Virus record (IMG/VR): IMGVR_UViG_2541047945_000012
Strand: one strand, 5' to 3'
Source of the DNA: a virus
Lineage: Duplodnaviria; Heunggongvirae; Uroviricota; Caudoviricetes
DNA: 7,139 nt
Under the pieces are notes generated by a model. That model was not told where the DNA came from. It did no database searches and was given only the letters and a program-made list of their open reading frames with translations. Positions 1 through 7,139 of the stretch are shown piece by piece; position 1 is the stretch's first letter; each line of letters begins with the position of its first letter. The position numbers and the translations under genes were made by a program.

Positions 1-516
1 ATGAAATTTAAAAAATGTCTTCTGCCTGTGGCAATGTTAGCGTCATTCACTCTGGCAGGATGCCAGTCAAATGCTGACGATCATGCTGCCGATGTTTATC
101 AAACCGATCAACTGAATACCAAACAAGAAACTAAAACCGTTAATATTATTTCCATTCTTCCCGCAAAAGTTGCCGTAGACAACTCCCAAAATAAACGGAA
201 CGCACAAGCCTTCGGCGCGCTTATTGGCGCAGTCGCTGGCGGTGTTATCGGCCACAACGTCGGGTCTGGCAGCAATTCCGGAACGACGGCAGGTGCAGTT
301 GGCGGCGGAGCTGTAGGCGCGGCAGCGGGTTCTATGGTGAATGATAAAACCTTAGTGGAAGGTGTTTCTTTAACCTATAAGGAAGGCACCAAAGTGTATA
401 CCTCTACCCAGGTGGGTAAAGAGTGCCAGTTTACGACAGGTTTAGCCGTTGTTATTACCACGACGTATAACGAAACGCGTATTCAGCCAAATACCAAATG
501 TCCTGAAAAGAGCTAA
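1..516 (+). CDS. yfgH: Outer-membrane lipoprotein with a glycine-zipper (YcfJ / 17-kDa-antigen-like) segment; YfgH-like
   Basis: ATG at 1, stop at 514-516, 171 aa. Lipoprotein signal peptide MKFKKCLLPVAMLASFTLAG-C with lipobox LAGC and Gln at +2. Gly/Ala-rich block GALIGAVAGGVIGHNVGSGSNSGTTAGAVGGGAVGAAAG resembles glycine-zipper lipoproteins. Symbol is from my recollection of E. coli yfgH-yfgI-guaA synteny and protein size, not from a search. Upstream signals lie outside the window. Confidence 0.8.
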   Translation: MKFKKCLLPVAMLASFTLAGCQSNADDHAADVYQTDQLNTKQETKTVNIISILPAKVAVDNSQNKRNAQAFGALIGAVAGGVIGHNVGSGSNSGTTAGAVGGGAVGAAAGSMVNDKTLVEGVSLTYKEGTKVYTSTQVGKECQFTTGLAVVITTTYNETRIQPNTKCPEKS

Positions 517-531
517 TAATCAGGAGGAGTC

Positions 532-1071
532 ATGAAGAAAGTTTTTCTTTGCGCCATCTTAGCCTCCTTAAGCTATCCGGCTATCGCCTCATCATTGCAG
601 GATCAACTCTCTGCTGTCGCAGAAGCGGAACAGCAAGGTAAAAATGAAGAGCAAAGGCAGCATGACGAATGGGTCGCGGAGCGCAACAGGGAAATCCAGC
701 AAGAGAAGCAACGTCGCGCAAATGCCCAGGCCGCCGCTAACAAAAGAGCGGCAACGGCAGCGGCAAATAAGAAAGCTCGTCAGGATAAACTGGACGCCGA
801 AGCCTCTGCGGACAAAAAACGCGATCAAAGTTATGAAGATGAGCTACGCAGCTTAGAGATTCAGAAACAAAAACTGGCGCTGGCGAAAGAAGAAGCCCGC
901 GTTAAGCGAGAAAACGAATTTATCGATCAGGAACTGAAGCACAAAGCTGCGCAAACCGATGTGGTGCAATCTGAAGCTGACGCCAACAGAAATATGACTG
1001 AAGGCGGTCGCGATCTGATGAAAAGCGTGGGCAAAGCAGAAGAGAACAAATCGGACAGCTGGTTTAATTAA
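532..1071 (+). CDS. yfgI: Secreted Ala/Lys/Glu/Gln-rich coiled-coil periplasmic protein (TolA-domain-II-like composition); YfgI-like
   Basis: SD AGGAGGAG at 521-528, ATG at 532, TAA at 1069-1071, 179 aa. Sec-type signal peptide MKKVFLCAILASLSYPAIA-SS. Mature part is strongly charged and low-complexity (AANKRAATAAANKKARQDKLDAEA...). Symbol is tentative, from recalled synteny and size only. Confidence 0.8.
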   Translation: MKKVFLCAILASLSYPAIASSLQDQLSAVAEAEQQGKNEEQRQHDEWVAERNREIQQEKQRRANAQAAANKRAATAAANKKARQDKLDAEASADKKRDQSYEDELRSLEIQKQKLALAKEEARVKRENEFIDQELKHKAAQTDVVQSEADANRNMTEGGRDLMKSVGKAEENKSDSWFN

Positions 1072-1110
1072 TCGATGTTAGTAACTTCAATCCTATAATT
1101 CTTGAAGATA

Positions 1111-1142
1111 AAAAACCCTCTGTAGTAACAGAGGGTTTTGTT
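1111..1142. terminator. Bidirectional rho-independent terminator
   Basis: Perfect 8-bp stem CCCTCTGT (1116-1123) / ACAGAGGG (1128-1135) with 4-nt loop AGTA, flanked by A5 (1111-1115) and T4 plus GTT (1136-1142). It lies 40 bp after the yfgI-like stop and between the convergent gene sets. Confidence 0.75.
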
Positions 1143-1163
1143 CATTCATAGTGCAGGGTCAAA

Positions 1164-1181
1164 TCATTCCCACTCAATTAT
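1164..1181 (-). other. guaA: Orphan 3'-terminal codons of guaA (GMP synthase), I-I-E-W-E-stop; candidate displaced att-side fragment
   Basis: Minus-strand codons ATA ATT GAG TGG GAA TGA (1181..1164), preceded in frame by TAA (1184..1182). GMP synthases end in ...TIEWE (recalled, not searched). Position and convergent orientation relative to the yfgI-like gene match recalled E. coli K-12 synteny. Only 4-5 codons long, so the call is weak taken alone. Confidence 0.4.
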
Positions 1182-1207
1182 TTACGACAATCATAACTAA
1201 TTGAGTG
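1171..1207. repeat. Perfect 10-bp inverted repeat CACTCAATTA / TAATTGAGTG with 17-bp spacer, overlapping the guaA terminal codons
   Basis: 1171-1180 cactcaatta and 1198-1207 taattgagtg are exact reverse complements. Located at the inferred host/prophage boundary. Confidence 0.6.
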
Positions 1208-1288
1208 ATAACATTTTTCCAAAACTTCATTTTTCTAGTACCGTTTTATATACCGTCACCGGAAATCAGTACCATGAAAAATGCCATG

Positions 1289-1771
1289 CTATCTGGTCAG
1301 GGTGTCGTATTGTTTTTCGCAGACTCTTCCGGCTTCGGCTGCCCGGTCAGCATACTCTGCCAGTTGTCTGTTTCTCTCGAGAGATTTGCTGAGCACGTCG
1401 GCAAGCAAAACTCCGGTGTCTGCGGCTGACGTCCCAGCGCCGACAATGGCGTTATACTGCCTGAGCTGCTCACGGATGGCAAAGAGTTGTTGCTGCAACC
1501 GGCCAGCGCGAGCGGCAGCATCAAGAGCATCATTGCGCGCCTGGTCGATCCTCTGCTGCGCTTCACGTTCATTGATCGATTTCTCCTGTTCGTAGTGCTG
1601 ACGAACTATCTCATCTTCAGCTTTGCGGTCTTCCTTCGCCTGCGCATACCCGGCATCGTACTGACGACTGCCGTGTGCATTCCAGGCTACAACTCCTGAT
1701 ATGACCAGAACAGCAAGCATCGCCATGATAACCAACTGTTTCCAGTATGCTTTTGCGAATGCCCAGATCAT
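1289..1771 (-). CDS. Rz-like i-spanin (inner-membrane spanin subunit)
   Basis: ATG at 1771..1769 overlaps the endolysin stop (ATGA, 1768-1771); SD AGGTG 8 nt upstream; TAG at 1291..1289; 160 aa. N-terminal TM ([21 protein letters not shown]) followed by a charged, Gln/Arg/Glu/Ala-rich predicted coiled coil and a C-terminal Cys. Classic position after the endolysin. Confidence 0.85.
1297..1572 (-). CDS. Rz1-like o-spanin (outer-membrane lipoprotein), fully embedded in the +1 frame of Rz
   Basis: ATG at 1572..1570 with SD AGGAGA 9 nt upstream; 91 aa. Signal peptide [26 protein letters not shown] with lipobox LAGC. Mature part about 65 aa, Pro-rich (8 Pro) with two Cys. Stops 8 nt before the Rz stop. 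Confidence 0.8.
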   Translation of the reverse strand: MNVKRSRGSTRRAMMLLMLPLALAGCSNNSLPSVSSSGSITPLSALGRQPQTPEFCLPTCSANLSRETDNWQSMLTGQPKPEESAKNNTTP

Positions 1772-2397
1772 ACCGCCAGCACCTTACTGGCAGTTATGTA
1801 TCGCGCGCGCCGGTCATCAATGCCGTTCCGGCCACCATTGATAAGCAGAGTTACACGTGCAATATCTCCGGTATACTTCATGCAGCCTTTGCTGGAGAAG
1901 AACCACGCCGCGCTACGAGCCGCGTATTCGTCCTGCGCCAGCAGTTCAGGACTCTCCAGCAGGTCAACCTTAAGACCGTTTCCACAGTCACGATAGTTAT
2001 TCAAACCGGTAATCTGGATAAGTCCGCGCCCACGGTAGTTCCAGCCGTCACCAGGGGCATTGTTCCCCATGCGTTTGCTGTACACCAGATTGGCGATCGC
2101 TCGCTGGCGCTCGAGTGGCAATGGTGGCTCACCAGCACGTCGCCCCAGTGCATTAGCCTGCCCCTGAGTGAGACGCCCAGCCCGAACGAAGTTAGCCAGT
2201 CCGCTGACGCTGTAGTTGAAATTCTCCTGCAACCGGGTGAAGCCCACAGACTCATGCCCGACCTGAGCAATAAACATTGCCAGATCTTCTGGTTTGCTGA
2301 TACCAAACTCTTTCATCGCAGAAGTTATATGCGAGAACCAGCGTGCGGCCAGCGCCTCGCTAATACCAGCAGCTCGCTGGAATTGTTTAATCTCCAT
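1768..2397 (-). CDS. Endolysin, glycoside hydrolase family 19 (chitinase-fold lysozyme), cytoplasmic (no signal or SAR segment)
   Basis: ATG at 2397..2395 with SD GAGG 8 nt upstream; TGA at 1770..1768; 209 aa ([13 protein letters not shown]...). The ORF-track start at 2562 is an upstream extension without an RBS. Contains GH19-type catalytic motifs [10 protein letters not shown] and GRGLIQITG (compare plant chitinase HETG and RGPIQ(I/L)S motifs, from memory). Confidence 0.85.
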
Positions 2398-2695
2398 GTT
2401 TAGACCTCGATATTTTGAAAATCTGAACAACGTTACCGCGTGTTTTAATAACCGCGGCAAGCATGACAGCGTTGATAATGACCTCAGATAAATCCACAGC
2501 CATTGGCGTGCGTAACCAGATTGCATAAGCGACACGAACTGGAATGCTGGCCGCAGCAACAATCAGGAAATAAGCAAGCCACCCACCCCATCGCCTGTGT
2601 TGAGAACCGTTTCTCCGAAATGTGGCAACTCGAACTGCTATACCGGCGCAAATAACCGCATTGGTGATAAGCAAAAAAAGCTCATGAGTTACCAT
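2387..2695 (-). CDS. Small membrane protein between holin and endolysin (2-3 TM; candidate antiholin, second holin or lysis regulator)
   Basis: ATG at 2695..2693 with SD GGGGAG 8 nt upstream; TAA at 2389..2387; 102 aa. Overlaps the holin 3' end by 14 bp and the endolysin start by 11 bp, suggesting translational coupling. TM1 [16 protein letters not shown], a highly basic loop ([15 protein letters not shown]), TM2 [22 protein letters not shown], and a possible short third hydrophobic segment. Confidence 0.7.
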
Positions 2696-3086
2696 CGTCT
2701 TTTCTCCCCGGAATTAACTCGCGTGGATTATCGGAACGGTGATAGAGCCAGATCCCAATTCGCACAGCGACGATTGCTGACACAAATGCACCGGCAGAGA
2801 AAACAATCCCTTTCTCGAAAGAATCCTGTGTGATTGTAGGGATCAGGCTGGCTATGCCGATAAGAATTGATGCTGCTGGTTTGTAGAATAGAAGTCCGCA
2901 GAGAAAGCTAAGCATCGACAAGAGCACGCGACGACGAATGGGATACTCTACCGCAGAGGTAACAAAAATCACCGCCCCAGCCAAAGACCCCAAAGCAACC
3001 TCAGGAGGAACTCCTGCTATCACTGCCGCCAAAGAACTCATGCTAAGCCACTGATTTAAAGTTTCACTGGTTAGTTGAGCTGACAT
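2682..3086 (-). CDS. Holin, class-I-like (three TM segments, charged C-terminal tail)
   Basis: ATG at 3086..3084 (MSAQLTSETLNQW...), preceded by GGTGG with a 5-nt spacer; an in-frame GTG at 3095 is the ORF-track start. TGA at 2684..2682; about 134 aa. Three hydrophobic segments (LAAVIAGVPPEVALGSLAGAVIFV; VLLSMLSFLCGLLFY...ILIGIASLI; IVFSAGAFVSAIVAVRIGIWLY) and a charged tail [19 protein letters not shown]. First gene of the lysis cluster. Confidence 0.75.
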   Translation of the reverse strand: MSAQLTSETLNQWLSMSSLAAVIAGVPPEVALGSLAGAVIFVTSAVEYPIRRRVLLSMLSFLCGLLFYKPAASILIGIASLIPTITQDSFEKGIVFSAGAFVSAIVAVRIGIWLYHRSDNPRELIPGRKDDGNS

Positions 3087-3143
3087 GTTTTCCACCGTTT
3101 ATATGCATAACTACCTCCTGAACAGTAAAGCATTACGCATGAT

Positions 3144-3159
3144 AAACCATTTATGGTTT
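3144..3159. promoter_or_regulatory. Perfect 16-bp palindrome AAACCAT-TT-ATGGTTT just downstream of the putative promoter (candidate operator or 5'-UTR hairpin)
   Basis: 7-bp arms are exact reverse complements with a 2-bp centre. Starts about 12 bp downstream of the -10 hexamer, so it overlaps the predicted transcription start region of the lysis operon. Confidence 0.45.
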
Positions 3160-3170
3160 TTTGTTACCCA

Positions 3171-3199
3171 ATATTACCAATCCAATTCGCGATGGTCAA
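3171..3199 (-). promoter_or_regulatory. Candidate sigma70 promoter for the lysis operon: TTGACC - 17 nt - TAATAT, with TGn extended -10
   Basis: On the minus strand, -35 TTGACC (3199..3194), 17-nt spacer, -10 TAATAT (3176..3171) preceded by TGG. AT-rich upstream. Predicted start near 3164, about 78 nt upstream of the holin ATG. Confidence 0.45.
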
Positions 3200-3451
3200 A
3201 ACATATCCACAGCGGTAAGTTTGAGTGTTTTCATTTCCAAAACTTTATACAATAATATATGCAGTCTGTTATTTTTACGCACAATAAAAACACGATACCA
3301 GCTATTTCGCCATAAATACAATTTCCTTTAATGCTGCCAACAGTGCCTGCAAAACATATAACAGAACACATAAATAACAGGCATAATATAGATTTAATAA
3401 TCCAAGTGCATATAAATATCATTTAAGAAGTTAAGATCATTATTATAATAA

Positions 3452-3483
3452 CAATAACCCCGCTGTTTTATTCGGGGTTATTG
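3452..3483. terminator. Hairpin terminator downstream of the tail fibre gene
   Basis: Stem AACCCCG (3456-3462) / CGGGGTT (3473-3479), extendable to 11 bp, with a 10-nt loop. On the minus strand it is followed by a U-rich tract (TTATTATAATA). It begins 10 bp after the tail fibre stop (3493-3495). Confidence 0.5.
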
Positions 3484-3492
3484 CATTTATTA

Positions 3493-4029
3493 TTACATTG
3501 ACATTAATATAAACATGGCTAATTCGTCATAACGAATTCCGTAGCGTCCTCCTGCTTTTTTTACAAGAATCATATCTCCTGTTTTATATTGAGAATAAAT
3601 TTTCTCACCTGTATCAGGATCTGTGCTCTCTTCAGTTATCACCTCTTCATCCCATACGTCAGGCCATTCATCGTAACACCAAAAAGCATATTGCTCAGGG
3701 TTTAAACCATGCTTTCTAAGAATATCCCCTACGGTTTGAGCGCCAACGCCAAAATGATACCTGGACGACTCAATTCCTTTGTGATTAATTGAGTCATTAA
3801 ATTTAAATTTATAGATGACTGACTTTATTTCAATAGCGGCATCACGCTCTGCATTAAGAATATCATATCTTGTTTTAAGAGTTTCATCTGACGTATTGAT
3901 TGACCCGGTTCCTGCATAGATAACAGAGCATCTGTTTGATGGCTGTCCAATAGCTTTAACATTATCATCAACAGGAGCTATTTTATTAGCATCTGCCAAC
4001 CACCAGTCTGTTCCATCAGCGTGACCGAT
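3493..4029 (-). pseudogene. Tail fibre/tailspike gene, C-terminal fragment (distal to the IS2 insertion) including an intramolecular-chaperone-like domain
   Basis: In frame with fragment 5361-6914 once IS2 and one copy of the 5-bp duplication are removed. TAA at 3495..3493. Encodes ...GHADGTDWWLADANKIAPVDD...SINTSDETLKTRYDIL...GGRYGIRYDELAMFILMSM. The first 9 codons of ORF-track entry 3493..4056 are IS2-derived. Confidence 0.8.
4025..4029. repeat. IS2 target-site duplication, copy 1 (CCGAT)
   Basis: ccgat immediately flanks the IS2 end at 4030; identical to 5361-5365. Confidence 0.85.
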
Positions 4030-4040
4030 TGGATTTGCCC

Positions 4041-4946
4041 CTATATTTCCAGACATCTGTTATCACTTAACCCATTACAAGCCCGCTGCCGCAGATATTC
4101 CCGTGGCGAGCGATAACCCAGCGCACTATGCGGATGCCATTCGTTATAATGCTCGAACGCCTCTGCAAGGTTCTTTGCTGCCGTTAACCCGTCTGGTTTG
4201 GGCATGATACTGATGTAGTCACGCTTTATCGTTTTCACGAAGCTCTCTGCTATTCCGTTACTCTCCGGACTCCGCACCGCCGTGTTCTTCGGTTCAAGTC
4301 CCAACATCCGGGCGAACTGGCGTGTTTCATTAGCCCGGTAGCATGAACCATTATCCGTCAGCCACTCCACTGGAGACGACGGAAGATCGTTGCCGAAGCG
4401 GCGTTCCACCGCTCCCAGCATGACGTCCTGTACTGTTTCACTGTTGAAGCCGCCGGTAGTGACCGCCCAGTGCAGTGCCTCACGATCACAGCAGTCCAGC
4501 GCGAACGTGACACGCAGTCTCTCTCCGTTATCACAGCAGAACTCGAACCCGTCAGAGCACCATCGCTGATTGCTTTCTTTCACGGCCACTCTGCCTGTAT
4601 GTGCCCGTTTCGATGGCGGTACAGCAGGTTTTCGCTCAAGCAACAGCGCATTCTGGCGCATGATCCGGTAAACACGTTTGGCATTGATCGCAGGCATACC
4701 ATCAAGTTCTGCCTGTCTGCGAAGCAGCGCCCATACCCGACGATAACCATACGTTGGCAGCTCTCCGATAACATGGTGTATACGGAGAAGCACATCCGTA
4801 TCATCAGTGTGACGACTGCGGCGGCCATCCATCCAGTCATCGGTTCGTCTGAGAATGACGTGCAACTGCGCACGCGACACCCGGAGACAACGGCTGACTA
4901 AGCTTACTCCCCATCCCCGGGCAATAAGGGCGCGTGCGCTATCCAC
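4041..4946 (-). CDS. insD: IS2 transposase OrfB (InsD; DDE catalytic domain), normally made as an OrfAB fusion by -1 frameshift
   Basis: 301-aa [37 protein letters not shown]...[11 protein letters not shown], recognised as IS2 InsD. Overlaps insC in the -1 frame at the A6G site. Confidence 0.9.
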
Positions 4947-5269
4947 TTTTTTGCCCGTCCATATTCAACGGCTTCTTTGAGGAGTTCATTTTCCATCGTT
5001 TTCTTGCCGAGCAGGCGCTGGAGTTCTTTAATCTGCTTCATGGCGGCAGCAAGTTCAGAGGCAGGAACAACCTGTTCTCCGGCGGCGACAGCAGTAAGAC
5101 TTCCTTCCTGGTATTGCTTACGCCAGAGAAATAACTGGCTGGCTGCTACACCATGTTGCCGGGCAACGAGGGAGACCGTCATCCCCGGTTCAAAGCTCTG
5201 CTGAACAATTGCGATCTTTTCCTGTGTGGTACGCCGTCTGCGTTTCTCCGGCCCTAAGACATCAATCAT
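4904..5269 (-). CDS. insC: IS2 OrfA (InsC; helix-turn-helix DNA-binding/regulatory protein)
   Basis: ATG at 5269..5267 with SD GGAG 5 nt upstream; 121 aa [41 protein letters not shown]... The ORF-track start at 5314 is an upstream extension. Confidence 0.9.
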
Positions 5270-5360
5270 CTGTTCTCCAATGACTAGTCTAAAAACTAGT
5301 ATTAAGACTATCACTTATTTAAGTGATATTGGTTGTCTGGAGATTCAGGGGGCCAGTCTA

Positions 5361-5365
5361 CCGAT
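5361..5365. repeat. IS2 target-site duplication, copy 2 (CCGAT)
   Basis: ccgat immediately after the IS2 end at 5360; identical to 4025-4029. Confidence 0.85.
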
Positions 5366-6914
5366 TCTTACTCTTATCCCACTTCTAATATTTAAACTTC
5401 CAGTATTACTCTGTAAATTACAATCTCCTGAAGTTGGTCCAAGCAGTACAGTTTTACCAACACCACATACTACTCTGGCATTTCCTTTTTGTGATACGAG
5501 TCTTGACTCACCTCCTGACTGCTCAGGAAGAGATTTATGGTCTACAAATGCATCGCGGGGGTTAAATACACCGTCTCCAGAATTATATCTTCCTCCTGTA
5601 TAGTTGTTAAATACAGGACCCCAGTCAACGCCATTGCCTTCAGAGCACCCGACCATTCTAAGCACTCGAGTATTCCCTGCTGCATATGGTAATGAGCTTG
5701 TTGATTGCCTGGAAGCTATCATACGTGCTCCATAACCAATAGCATTACCACCATTTATAGTTACATATGCTGGCTGGCTTTCGAAATATGTACTGTAAAA
5801 GTTCATATTTCCACAGTCATGTAGATGAATAAGAACATCATCCCATCCCTGAATGGTTCCTGCATGTACCTGTACACCGCGAACTGGTTCCCCTGAAACC
5901 TCCATACACTCTGATGGCCGGCTGAATGGCTGAGACAGGTATTGCGATGTGGCAAGCAGATGTGTGTGGTGATACAGGCTGGTAATGTAGCAATCGAAAA
6001 ATTGCGTTCCCGCCATACCAAAGTTATCTATGTCATTTCGCCGTATAGTAGAACCTACTGTTGCCTCAGAAGCGTTAGACACTCCAGTAAATACTAACTT
6101 ATCACCGGATACGGATAATCCTGAATAAGTGAAATTCCTGCCTCCCGATCTTAAAACCCCGGACGTTTCGAAGGTGTGGCTTGATGACCATGGGATTTCG
6201 ATAGTGCTGGACGTTACCGCTGTAATTCGGAATACATCATGGGCGCGGATCGAAACACCCTTGAATCCCTGGAATCTACAGTGATAATAGTTTTCATCCT
6301 CGCCCTGAGCGGCCAGCGTGCCAGATACAGGAATGTTCGTTTTTAAAAGTGCCGTCTTGCGCCAGTATCCAACCACCTGCAAATTGCGGTATTCATTGCC
6401 AAAAGACGCACGTGACCAAATACCTACATCCCACTCATCGCCAAGACCGGTATTTGCAATGTCTTTATAACCATCCAGCCCATTGAAATATGGAACAATA
6501 CGAAAGTTCTCAAGGCGAACACATCCTGTCTCTGGCATCAATATTGCGGCAGAGAATGGTTTAAGCGTGGCTCTTGTAGCCCCATTAGCATCACCGTTAG
6601 TAAAATCCAATAAATCATATGATGACGCAGGTGCCGTTGTTGTATACGGGTCTTCGGAAGATGGATTAGAAACCACACCACCACTAACATCCATATTAGA
6701 AACACAATCTACAGTATATTTTTTATTTCCTACACCGTACATCAGGAATGTGGTCCCTGTGGTAATATCAGGAGCAAATGTTGCAGTATATCCAGAGACC
6801 CATTTGCCCACACCAAGACCAATTATCCCACCACCAGAAACAGGTGTTAACGTATCCGTTATTACATACGCATTATCAGTACCATAAATAACCTTTCCTG
6901 TGTTAATGGCAGCT
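5361..6914 (-). pseudogene. Tail fibre/tailspike gene, central fragment between the IS3-family element and IS2; 5' end missing
   Basis: Open frame of about 517 codons running from the IS3-family terminus (6915) to the IS2 terminus. Gly/Ser/Thr/Asn/Tyr-rich, as in receptor-binding fibre or spike bodies. No credible start codon or RBS inside the fragment, so the N-terminal part must lie beyond the IS element. Codons 1-61 of the 584-aa ORF-track entry are out-of-frame readthrough of the IS transposase. Confidence 0.7.
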
Positions 6915-7139
6915 TGAACCGCCCCGGGTTTCCTGGAGAGTATTTTATCTGTGAACTCAGGCTGCCAGATCATCGTTTCCGATGGAAGCATAATAAGCTT
7001 TTTCTGCTTCTGCCGGAGGAGTATGGCCCAGCCTTTCCAGCAATCGTCGATTGTTATACCAGTCCACCCACGTGAGTGTGGCCAGTTCCACTTCTGCACG
7101 GTTTTTCCAGCTCTTACGGTGTATTACCTCCGCTTTGTA
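6915..7139 (-). mobile_element. IS3-family insertion sequence (IS629/IS1203-like), partial; right end only, continuing beyond the window
   Basis: Terminal sequence on the plus strand from 6915: TGAACCGCCCCGGGTTTCCTGGAGAGTATTTTATCTGTGAACTCAGG, the TG...-type IS3-family end that I recall for IS629. It is followed by the transposase OrfB C-terminus. Exact IS identity not verified. Confidence 0.7.
6957..7139 (-). CDS. IS3-family transposase OrfB, C-terminal 60 codons (5'-truncated by window edge)
   Basis: Minus-strand translation ...YKAEVIHRKSWKNRAEVELATLTWVDWYNNRRLLERLGHTPPAEAEKAYYASIGNDDLAA-stop, with TGA at 6959..6957. This is a typical C-terminal tail of an IS3-family DDE transposase. Confidence 0.75.
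   Translation of the reverse strand, partial: YKAEVIHRKSWKNRAEVELATLTWVDWYNNRRLLERLGHTPPAEAEKAYYASIGNDDLAA

Follow-up and report, generated by a model that had tools for sequence, protein, structure and literature searches.

Why should a viral contig carry the last four codons and the stop codon of a bacterial gene, with no body of that gene attached and phage lysis genes close by? The stretch of DNA analysed here, called the window throughout, is the 7,139-nt IMG/VR record IMGVR_UViG_2541047945_000012 (Caudoviricetes). A sequence-only reading had taken the fragment for the displaced 3′ end of guaA, the gene for GMP synthase, left behind by a phage that integrated within the last few codons of the gene, and had placed an intact guaA next to an integrase at the far end of the prophage. 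We are now highly confident that window positions 1162–1178 are the attL core of an epsilon15/phiV10-type (Uetakevirus) prophage integrated at the guaA 3′ end.

Results

The stranded terminus of guaA

On the minus strand, positions 1178..1164 read ATTGAGTGGGAATGA and on the plus strand positions 1164-1178 read TCATTCCCACTCAAT, the reverse complement of which, ATT GAG TGG GAA TGA, gives I-E-W-E-stop. The fragment was rightly recognized as the conserved C-terminal end of GMP synthase, as GuaA of E. coli K-12 ends in ...GKPPATIEWE before its stop codon. Upstream of the fragment the minus strand continues with ATA (1181..1179) and then TAA (1184..1182), so the frame is indeed closed two codons away; another reading frame here gives ...VVNN-stop-VGMI-stop. 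The distances given earlier also stand, i.e., 24 bp from the shared terminator to the fragment and about 110 bp from the fragment to the lysis genes: the terminator hairpin at 1112-1139 (−21.1 kcal/mol, z = −3.7), which is identical in K-12 and is the sole terminator-like site that the terminator scan returned within 1000-1400, ends about 24 nt from the stop codon of the fragment, and the gene for the Rz-like spanin, which stops at 1289, lies 110 nt beyond the fragment and core. All features of the window are collected in Table 1.

Table 1. Features of the window, in order of position, with the evidence for each.
Feature	Position	Strand	Evidence
yfgH, outer-membrane lipoprotein, host gene	1..516	+	ORF and yfgH annotation beneath matches
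yfgI, host gene encoding a DUF5384 protein; convergent with guaA when no prophage is present	532..1071	+	ORF and annotation
Host bidirectional rho-independent terminator of yfgI and (empty site) guaA	1112..1139	.	Terminator scan, fold, K-12 identity
17-bp att core AATCATTCCCACTCAAT, crossover region	1162..1178	.	Identical in attB (K-12), attP (phiV10, epsilon15), attL and attR
Orphan guaA 3′ terminus (IEWE-stop), stranded on the attL side	1164..1178	-	Direct reading and K-12 GuaA C-terminus
Phage-derived P′ arm of attL	1179..1288	.	Collinear with phiV10 and epsilon15 attP
Rz-like i-spanin (DUF2514)	1289..1771	-	Pfam PF10721, E = 1.5e-42; annotation
Rz1-like o-spanin lipoprotein, embedded, LAGC lipobox	1297..1572	-	ORF; PHROG 11621 'Rz-like spanin', E = 1.6e-40
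GH19 endolysin	1768..2397	-	Pfam PF00182; annotation
Holin (Phage_holin_3_7)	2387..2695	-	Pfam PF05449, E = 5e-27
Putative second holin or membrane protein	2682..3086	-	Pfam PF16931, E = 1.5e-11
Tailspike C-terminal piece, endosialidase-type chaperone domain	3493..4029	-	Pfam PF13884 and PF12219; PHROG 1171 positions 763-937
IS2, 1,331 bp, within the tailspike gene	4030..5360	-	blastn against uninterrupted relative; transposase domains
Tailspike middle piece	5361..6914	-	PHROG 1171 positions 282-743; 99.6% identity to L005 (EC21Z-151) 40598-42154
Second IS3-family element, end only, runs off the window	6915..7139	-	rve_2 and rve_3 domains

Breakpoint, core and arms

Window 1060-1300 was aligned with the yfgI-guaA region of prophage-free K-12 (L002) and with both junctions of strain O15_8X (L001), and the attP of phiV10 was added. 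The identity to K-12 runs through base 1178; from 1179 on, the window is unrelated to K-12 and tracks the attP arm of phiV10 and epsilon15. The proposed integration inside the last few guaA codons is thereby borne out, host homology ending at 1178 against a genome free of the prophage. At this edge lies a 17-bp core made up of the final four codons of guaA with their stop and 2 nt more. Its reverse complement, attgagtgggaatgatt, matches at 17/17 positions the attP/attB core reported at the guaA 3′ end for phage vB_EcoP_ZX5, whose attB, attL and attR were verified by PCR and Sanger sequencing (PMC9782041); that report gives the same sequence as the attP of phiV10 and epsilon15.

The four sites align as a clean reciprocal exchange about the 17-bp core. 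The attP of phiV10 reads ...GCTGTT / AATCATTCCCACTCAAT / TATTTACGG... and the attB of K-12 reads ...GGGTCA / AATCATTCCCACTCAAT / GGTAGCTGG..., and attL of the window combines the left arm of attB with the right arm of attP, just as attR combines the left arm of attP with the right arm of attB. The K-12 locus, phiV10 (L003) and the window have a single copy of the core each, and two lysogens have two apiece; in the window the copy remains the only one even at two mismatches (chance expectation, 0). Breakpoint, core and arm identities are direct observations. Within the P′ arm, the sequence ATACCGTCAC at 1250-1259 is a putative arm-type site of the integrase, being equal to GTGACGGTAT, which is annotated as integrase-binding in the GenBank record of epsilon15, where integrase arm sites, IHF sites and a terminator are all annotated in attP.

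Relatives of the phage and its lysis module

Window positions 1179-3480 share 90-96% identity with the E. coli Uetakeviruses YDC107_2, phiv142-3, HEMP4, vB_EcoP_ZX5, TL-2011b and phiV10 and about 82% with Salmonella phage epsilon15. Away from the junction, Rz/Rz1 is followed by the GH19 endolysin, the holins and the tailspike, an order that matches phiV10, and the embedded Rz1-like gene corresponds in size and position to p30a of that phage. In phiV10 the order is Rz, attP, terminator and int, the last of which is annotated as a member of the INT_P4 family. Judged by these relatives, the element is an epsilon15/phiV10-type podovirus of the genus Uetakevirus, and the lambdoid frame in which the locus had been seen does not fit its best matches, which are Uetakevirus podoviruses. 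A lambdoid prophage, for which an S/R/Rz lysis module and siphovirus or P22-like structural genes would be expected, was rejected on the full-length relative as well, which carries T7-gp14-like core protein genes and an epsilon15-type layout.

Between the holin-like and tailspike genes lies an unannotated spacer of about 400 bp with 30% GC (3096-3492), in the slot that in phiV10 is taken by oac, the O-acetyltransferase gene for seroconversion. Most Uetakevirus matches end at about window 3110-3180, which marks this slot as a variable 'moron' slot. The spacer includes a hairpin at about 3459-3482 and a 63-aa hydrophobic ORF (3231-3422, minus strand), for which the PHROG search returned zero matches.

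The far end of the prophage and its distribution

The window itself stops inside an IS element, and the evidence for the far end comes from related genomes, in which the arrangement of both ends is observed. O15_8X has a remnant of 14 kb in which, starting at yfgI, the lysis genes and tail fibre lead to a tyrosine integrase; a full-length guaA of 1,578 bp comes next. The prophage of EC21Z-151 (L005) matches the window at 99.3-99.6% identity once the IS elements are set aside; 38,934 bp separate its two copies of the core, and the order is guaB-guaA-int ... tail fibre-holins-endolysin-Rz-yfgI. In both genomes the last guaA codons and the stop codon fall in the second copy of the core. The intact guaA expected at the far end beside an integrase therefore exists in these relatives, whose two junctions share, as had been anticipated, an identical 17-bp core. 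For the source genome of the window, we infer from the relatives that the attR end with intact guaA and int lies on another contig.

What survives in the O15_8X remnant (21162-35361 in L001) is the lysis cassette with the tail fibre, a gene for a YafO-family toxin, and int, together with an att core at each end; the genes for replication and for the head have been lost. Decay of the prophage at the guaA site keeps both ends.

Of 5,426 complete E. coli genomes, junction-centred searches place attL in 550 and attR in 568, about 10% in each case. Such queries were used because a query with window 1-1400 at a coverage of at least 80% matched 5,351 of the 5,426 genomes and was non-discriminating, the host part alone making up more than 80% of that query. 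The core with the phage arm was also found on at least 120 IMG/VR viral contigs. Neither the core with the phage arm nor the IS2/tailspike junction had any match (0 for each) in the species-representative genomes; with one genome per species in this set, the prophage is evidently absent from those chosen for E. coli and Salmonella, and the scan is uninformative on host range.

A tailspike gene broken by two insertion sequences

The tailspike pieces of the window map to consecutive parts of one family, PHROG 1171, and the C-terminal piece aligns collinearly with the tail fibre gene of EC21Z-151, which encodes 991 aa. Both IS insertions are observed directly. IS2, which sits in the chaperone-proximal part of the gene, has CCGAT on both sides (4025-4029 and 5361-5365), a target duplication of 5 bp. 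Tailspike homology ends at 6916, where the second element, annotated as 'IS3 family transposase' in many genomes, truncates the gene about 296 codons from its start and cuts off the N-terminal third. In its terminal sequence, TGAACCGCCCCGGG, this element resembles IS629/IS1203. A metagenome contig (L046) is 100% identical to the window, lacks IS2 and retains the terminal IS3-family junction, which makes the IS3-family insertion the earlier of the two; by the same comparison the IS2 insertion is recent. Another IMG/VR contig (L082; UViG contig 000017 of IMG taxon 2541047946, 7,009 nt, isolate genome) begins at the yfgH start codon and is 100% identical to window 1-7009, and the window is hence a short draft contig that breaks inside an IS. 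Because the only tailspike gene is broken twice, this copy of the prophage is probably defective and non-infectious.

The receptor-binding module of the tailspike (window 3493-6914) recurs with 97% identity in a P22-like prophage of strain 702/18 (L004 12051-16101), the sole complete E. coli genome that covers at least 80% of window 3000-7139. That prophage lies at bioA-ybhB, and its tailspike is likewise interrupted by an IS3-family element, at an insertion different from that of the window; strain 702/18 was accordingly set aside as a source of the window. The module looks like one that has been exchanged between Uetakevirus and P22-like phages.

A phage-borne terminator that resembles the host terminator

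The phage arm carries a terminator, AAAAACCCTCTGTAAAAACAGAGGGTT, which agrees in 25 of 27 nt with AAAAACCCTCTGTAGTAACAGAGGGTT, the terminator of yfgI and guaA in the host, both differences being in the loop; it is found at 35270-35300 in O15_8X (L001), 6782-6808 in phiV10 (L003) and 6127-6153 in EC21Z-151 (L005), to be compared with 1112-1139 in the window. The chance expectation of such a match is 0. The phage terminator is kept in phiV10, in the E. coli prophages and, with one further change, in epsilon15. In a lysogen, where it comes after the stop codon of guaA and before the start of int on the same strand, this sequence folds into a terminator. The lysogen is thus flanked by a bipartite direct repeat consisting of the 17-bp core and an offset 27-bp copy of the terminator. 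This comparison suggests that attP holds more of the host guaA 3′ flank than the core, in a copy that has partly diverged.

From its position between guaA and int, both read from the same strand, the terminator would block guaBA read-through into int. We raise only tentatively, as a rather doubtful option, that the attP arm may hold a captured host guaA/yfgI terminator, which could serve as a host-matched insulator ending guaBA transcription before int. If true, attP would have originated by capture of host DNA and there would be selection for unchanged processing of the guaA 3′ end. The terminator is already annotated in phage records, and it is its homology to the host and its insulator role alone that might be new.

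Discussion

The stranded terminus is best read as the product of site-specific integration. We propose that a P4-type tyrosine integrase carried out the exchange between attP and attB inside the 17 bp common to both, attB comprising the closing four codons of guaA, its stop and 2 nt more. In the free phage, attP lies between the lysis cassette (Rz/Rz1) and int, which puts the lysis genes of the prophage on the yfgI side and int on the guaA side. The attL side then holds the displaced guaA terminus of the host along with the 3′ UTR and terminator that belong to it, and at the attR side the guaA body would be completed by the identical core copy of the phage, followed by the phage-borne terminator. 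As the phage core copy regenerates the terminus, guaA would not be inactivated. The expected attR of the source genome would carry a guaA end ...ATTGAGTGGGAATGATT, followed by a GCTGTT-type phage arm, the look-alike terminator and a P4-type integrase. The tailspike gene was hit later, by the IS3-family element and then by IS2. Integrase-dependent integration and excision at this core were demonstrated in published experiments with the close relative vB_EcoP_ZX5.

The attachment site is already published, and the locus is one more case of a common element and reveals no new mechanism. The sequence-only reading knew of no use of guaA as a standard lambdoid site; the 3′ end of this gene is in fact an established site for the Uetakevirus group and for the islands GIsul2 and CMGI-3. 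The phiV10-like phage TL-2011b was reported to be inserted in guaA (PMC3293862), and a survey of tyrosine recombinases assigns the guaA 3′ flank as the target of epsilon15-cluster integrases and CMGI-3, citing Kropinski et al. 2007 (PMC8138268).

With such a shared target, the junction could in principle have been made by a non-phage guaA-targeting island of the GIsul2/CMGI-3 type, with the phage genes as an unrelated neighbour. The target of GIsul2 at the guaA 3′ end is the octamer GAGTGGGA (PMC9376610), which falls within the 17-bp core, and the CMGI-3 integrases cluster with that of epsilon15 (PMC8138268). However, 1179-1288 is collinear with the phiV10/epsilon15 attP and continues unbroken into the Uetakevirus lysis cassette, zero island genes were found in the window by ORFs and Pfam, and the GIsul2 backbone (alpA, resG, CR2-sul2) is absent beside the att site, which leaves an island with next to no probability. 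It is scarcely more credible that the IEWE-stop is a chance match or a leftover of a deletion or IS rearrangement in which no site-specific recombination took part. The two IS elements in the window do show that rearrangements happen in this region, but the nearest of them is at least 2.8 kb from the junction, the break coincides exactly with the boundary of the 17-bp core known from the literature, for which the chance expectation is 0, and the identical junction recurs in 550 genomes, with an intact guaA opposite in those examined.

A different objection accepts the attL and concerns the state of the prophage, which could be complete and inducible rather than defective. The attL core, the putative arm site and all ORFs of the lysis cassette are intact, and lysogens of vB_EcoP_ZX5 release phage spontaneously (PMC9782041). 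Nevertheless, there is one tailspike gene, into which IS2 has inserted and which the IS3-family element has truncated, so that virions, if made, should be without a functional receptor-binding protein, and the 14-kb remnant of O15_8X at the same site shows decay to be common here. We therefore consider an inducible prophage improbable and retain the reading of a true attL that belongs to a probably defective Uetakevirus prophage.

The significance of the locus lies mainly in annotation. The boundary between host and phage in this contig is fixed at 1178/1179, and a record classified as viral holds 1.18 kb of host DNA, yfgH and yfgI included. In many further IMG/VR proviruses the core sits at a matching offset (about 1162), and the provirus calls of such elements systematically take in 1.18 kb of host DNA with yfgH, yfgI and the terminator. 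A prophage junction could here be recognized from four codons in the sequence alone.

Among known systems, the junction is closest to the attL of Uetakevirus prophages (epsilon15, phiV10, vB_EcoP_ZX5, TL-2011b, phiv142-3), with which it shares the identical 17-bp core, the collinear phage arm including the annotated integrase arm site, the gene order and, at 90-96% DNA identity to the E. coli members, the lysis module. It differs from phiV10 in the receptor-binding part of the tailspike, which the window has in common with a P22-like prophage, and in lacking oac between holin and tailspike, where it has the 400-bp AT-rich spacer instead; it differs from the Uetakevirus prophages in having a tailspike gene that two IS elements have disrupted. 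The islands GIsul2 and CMGI-3 use the same chromosomal target and related P4/SXT-type tyrosine integrases, but they are non-phage elements with resistance, arsenic and transfer genes, whereas the arm and the neighbouring genes in the window are those of a phage. P4-family integrases that act at the 3′ ends of tRNA genes offer the more general parallel, in which the element carries the 3′ end of its target, the gene is regenerated and an orphan fragment is left at the opposite end, although the target here is the protein-coding guaA.
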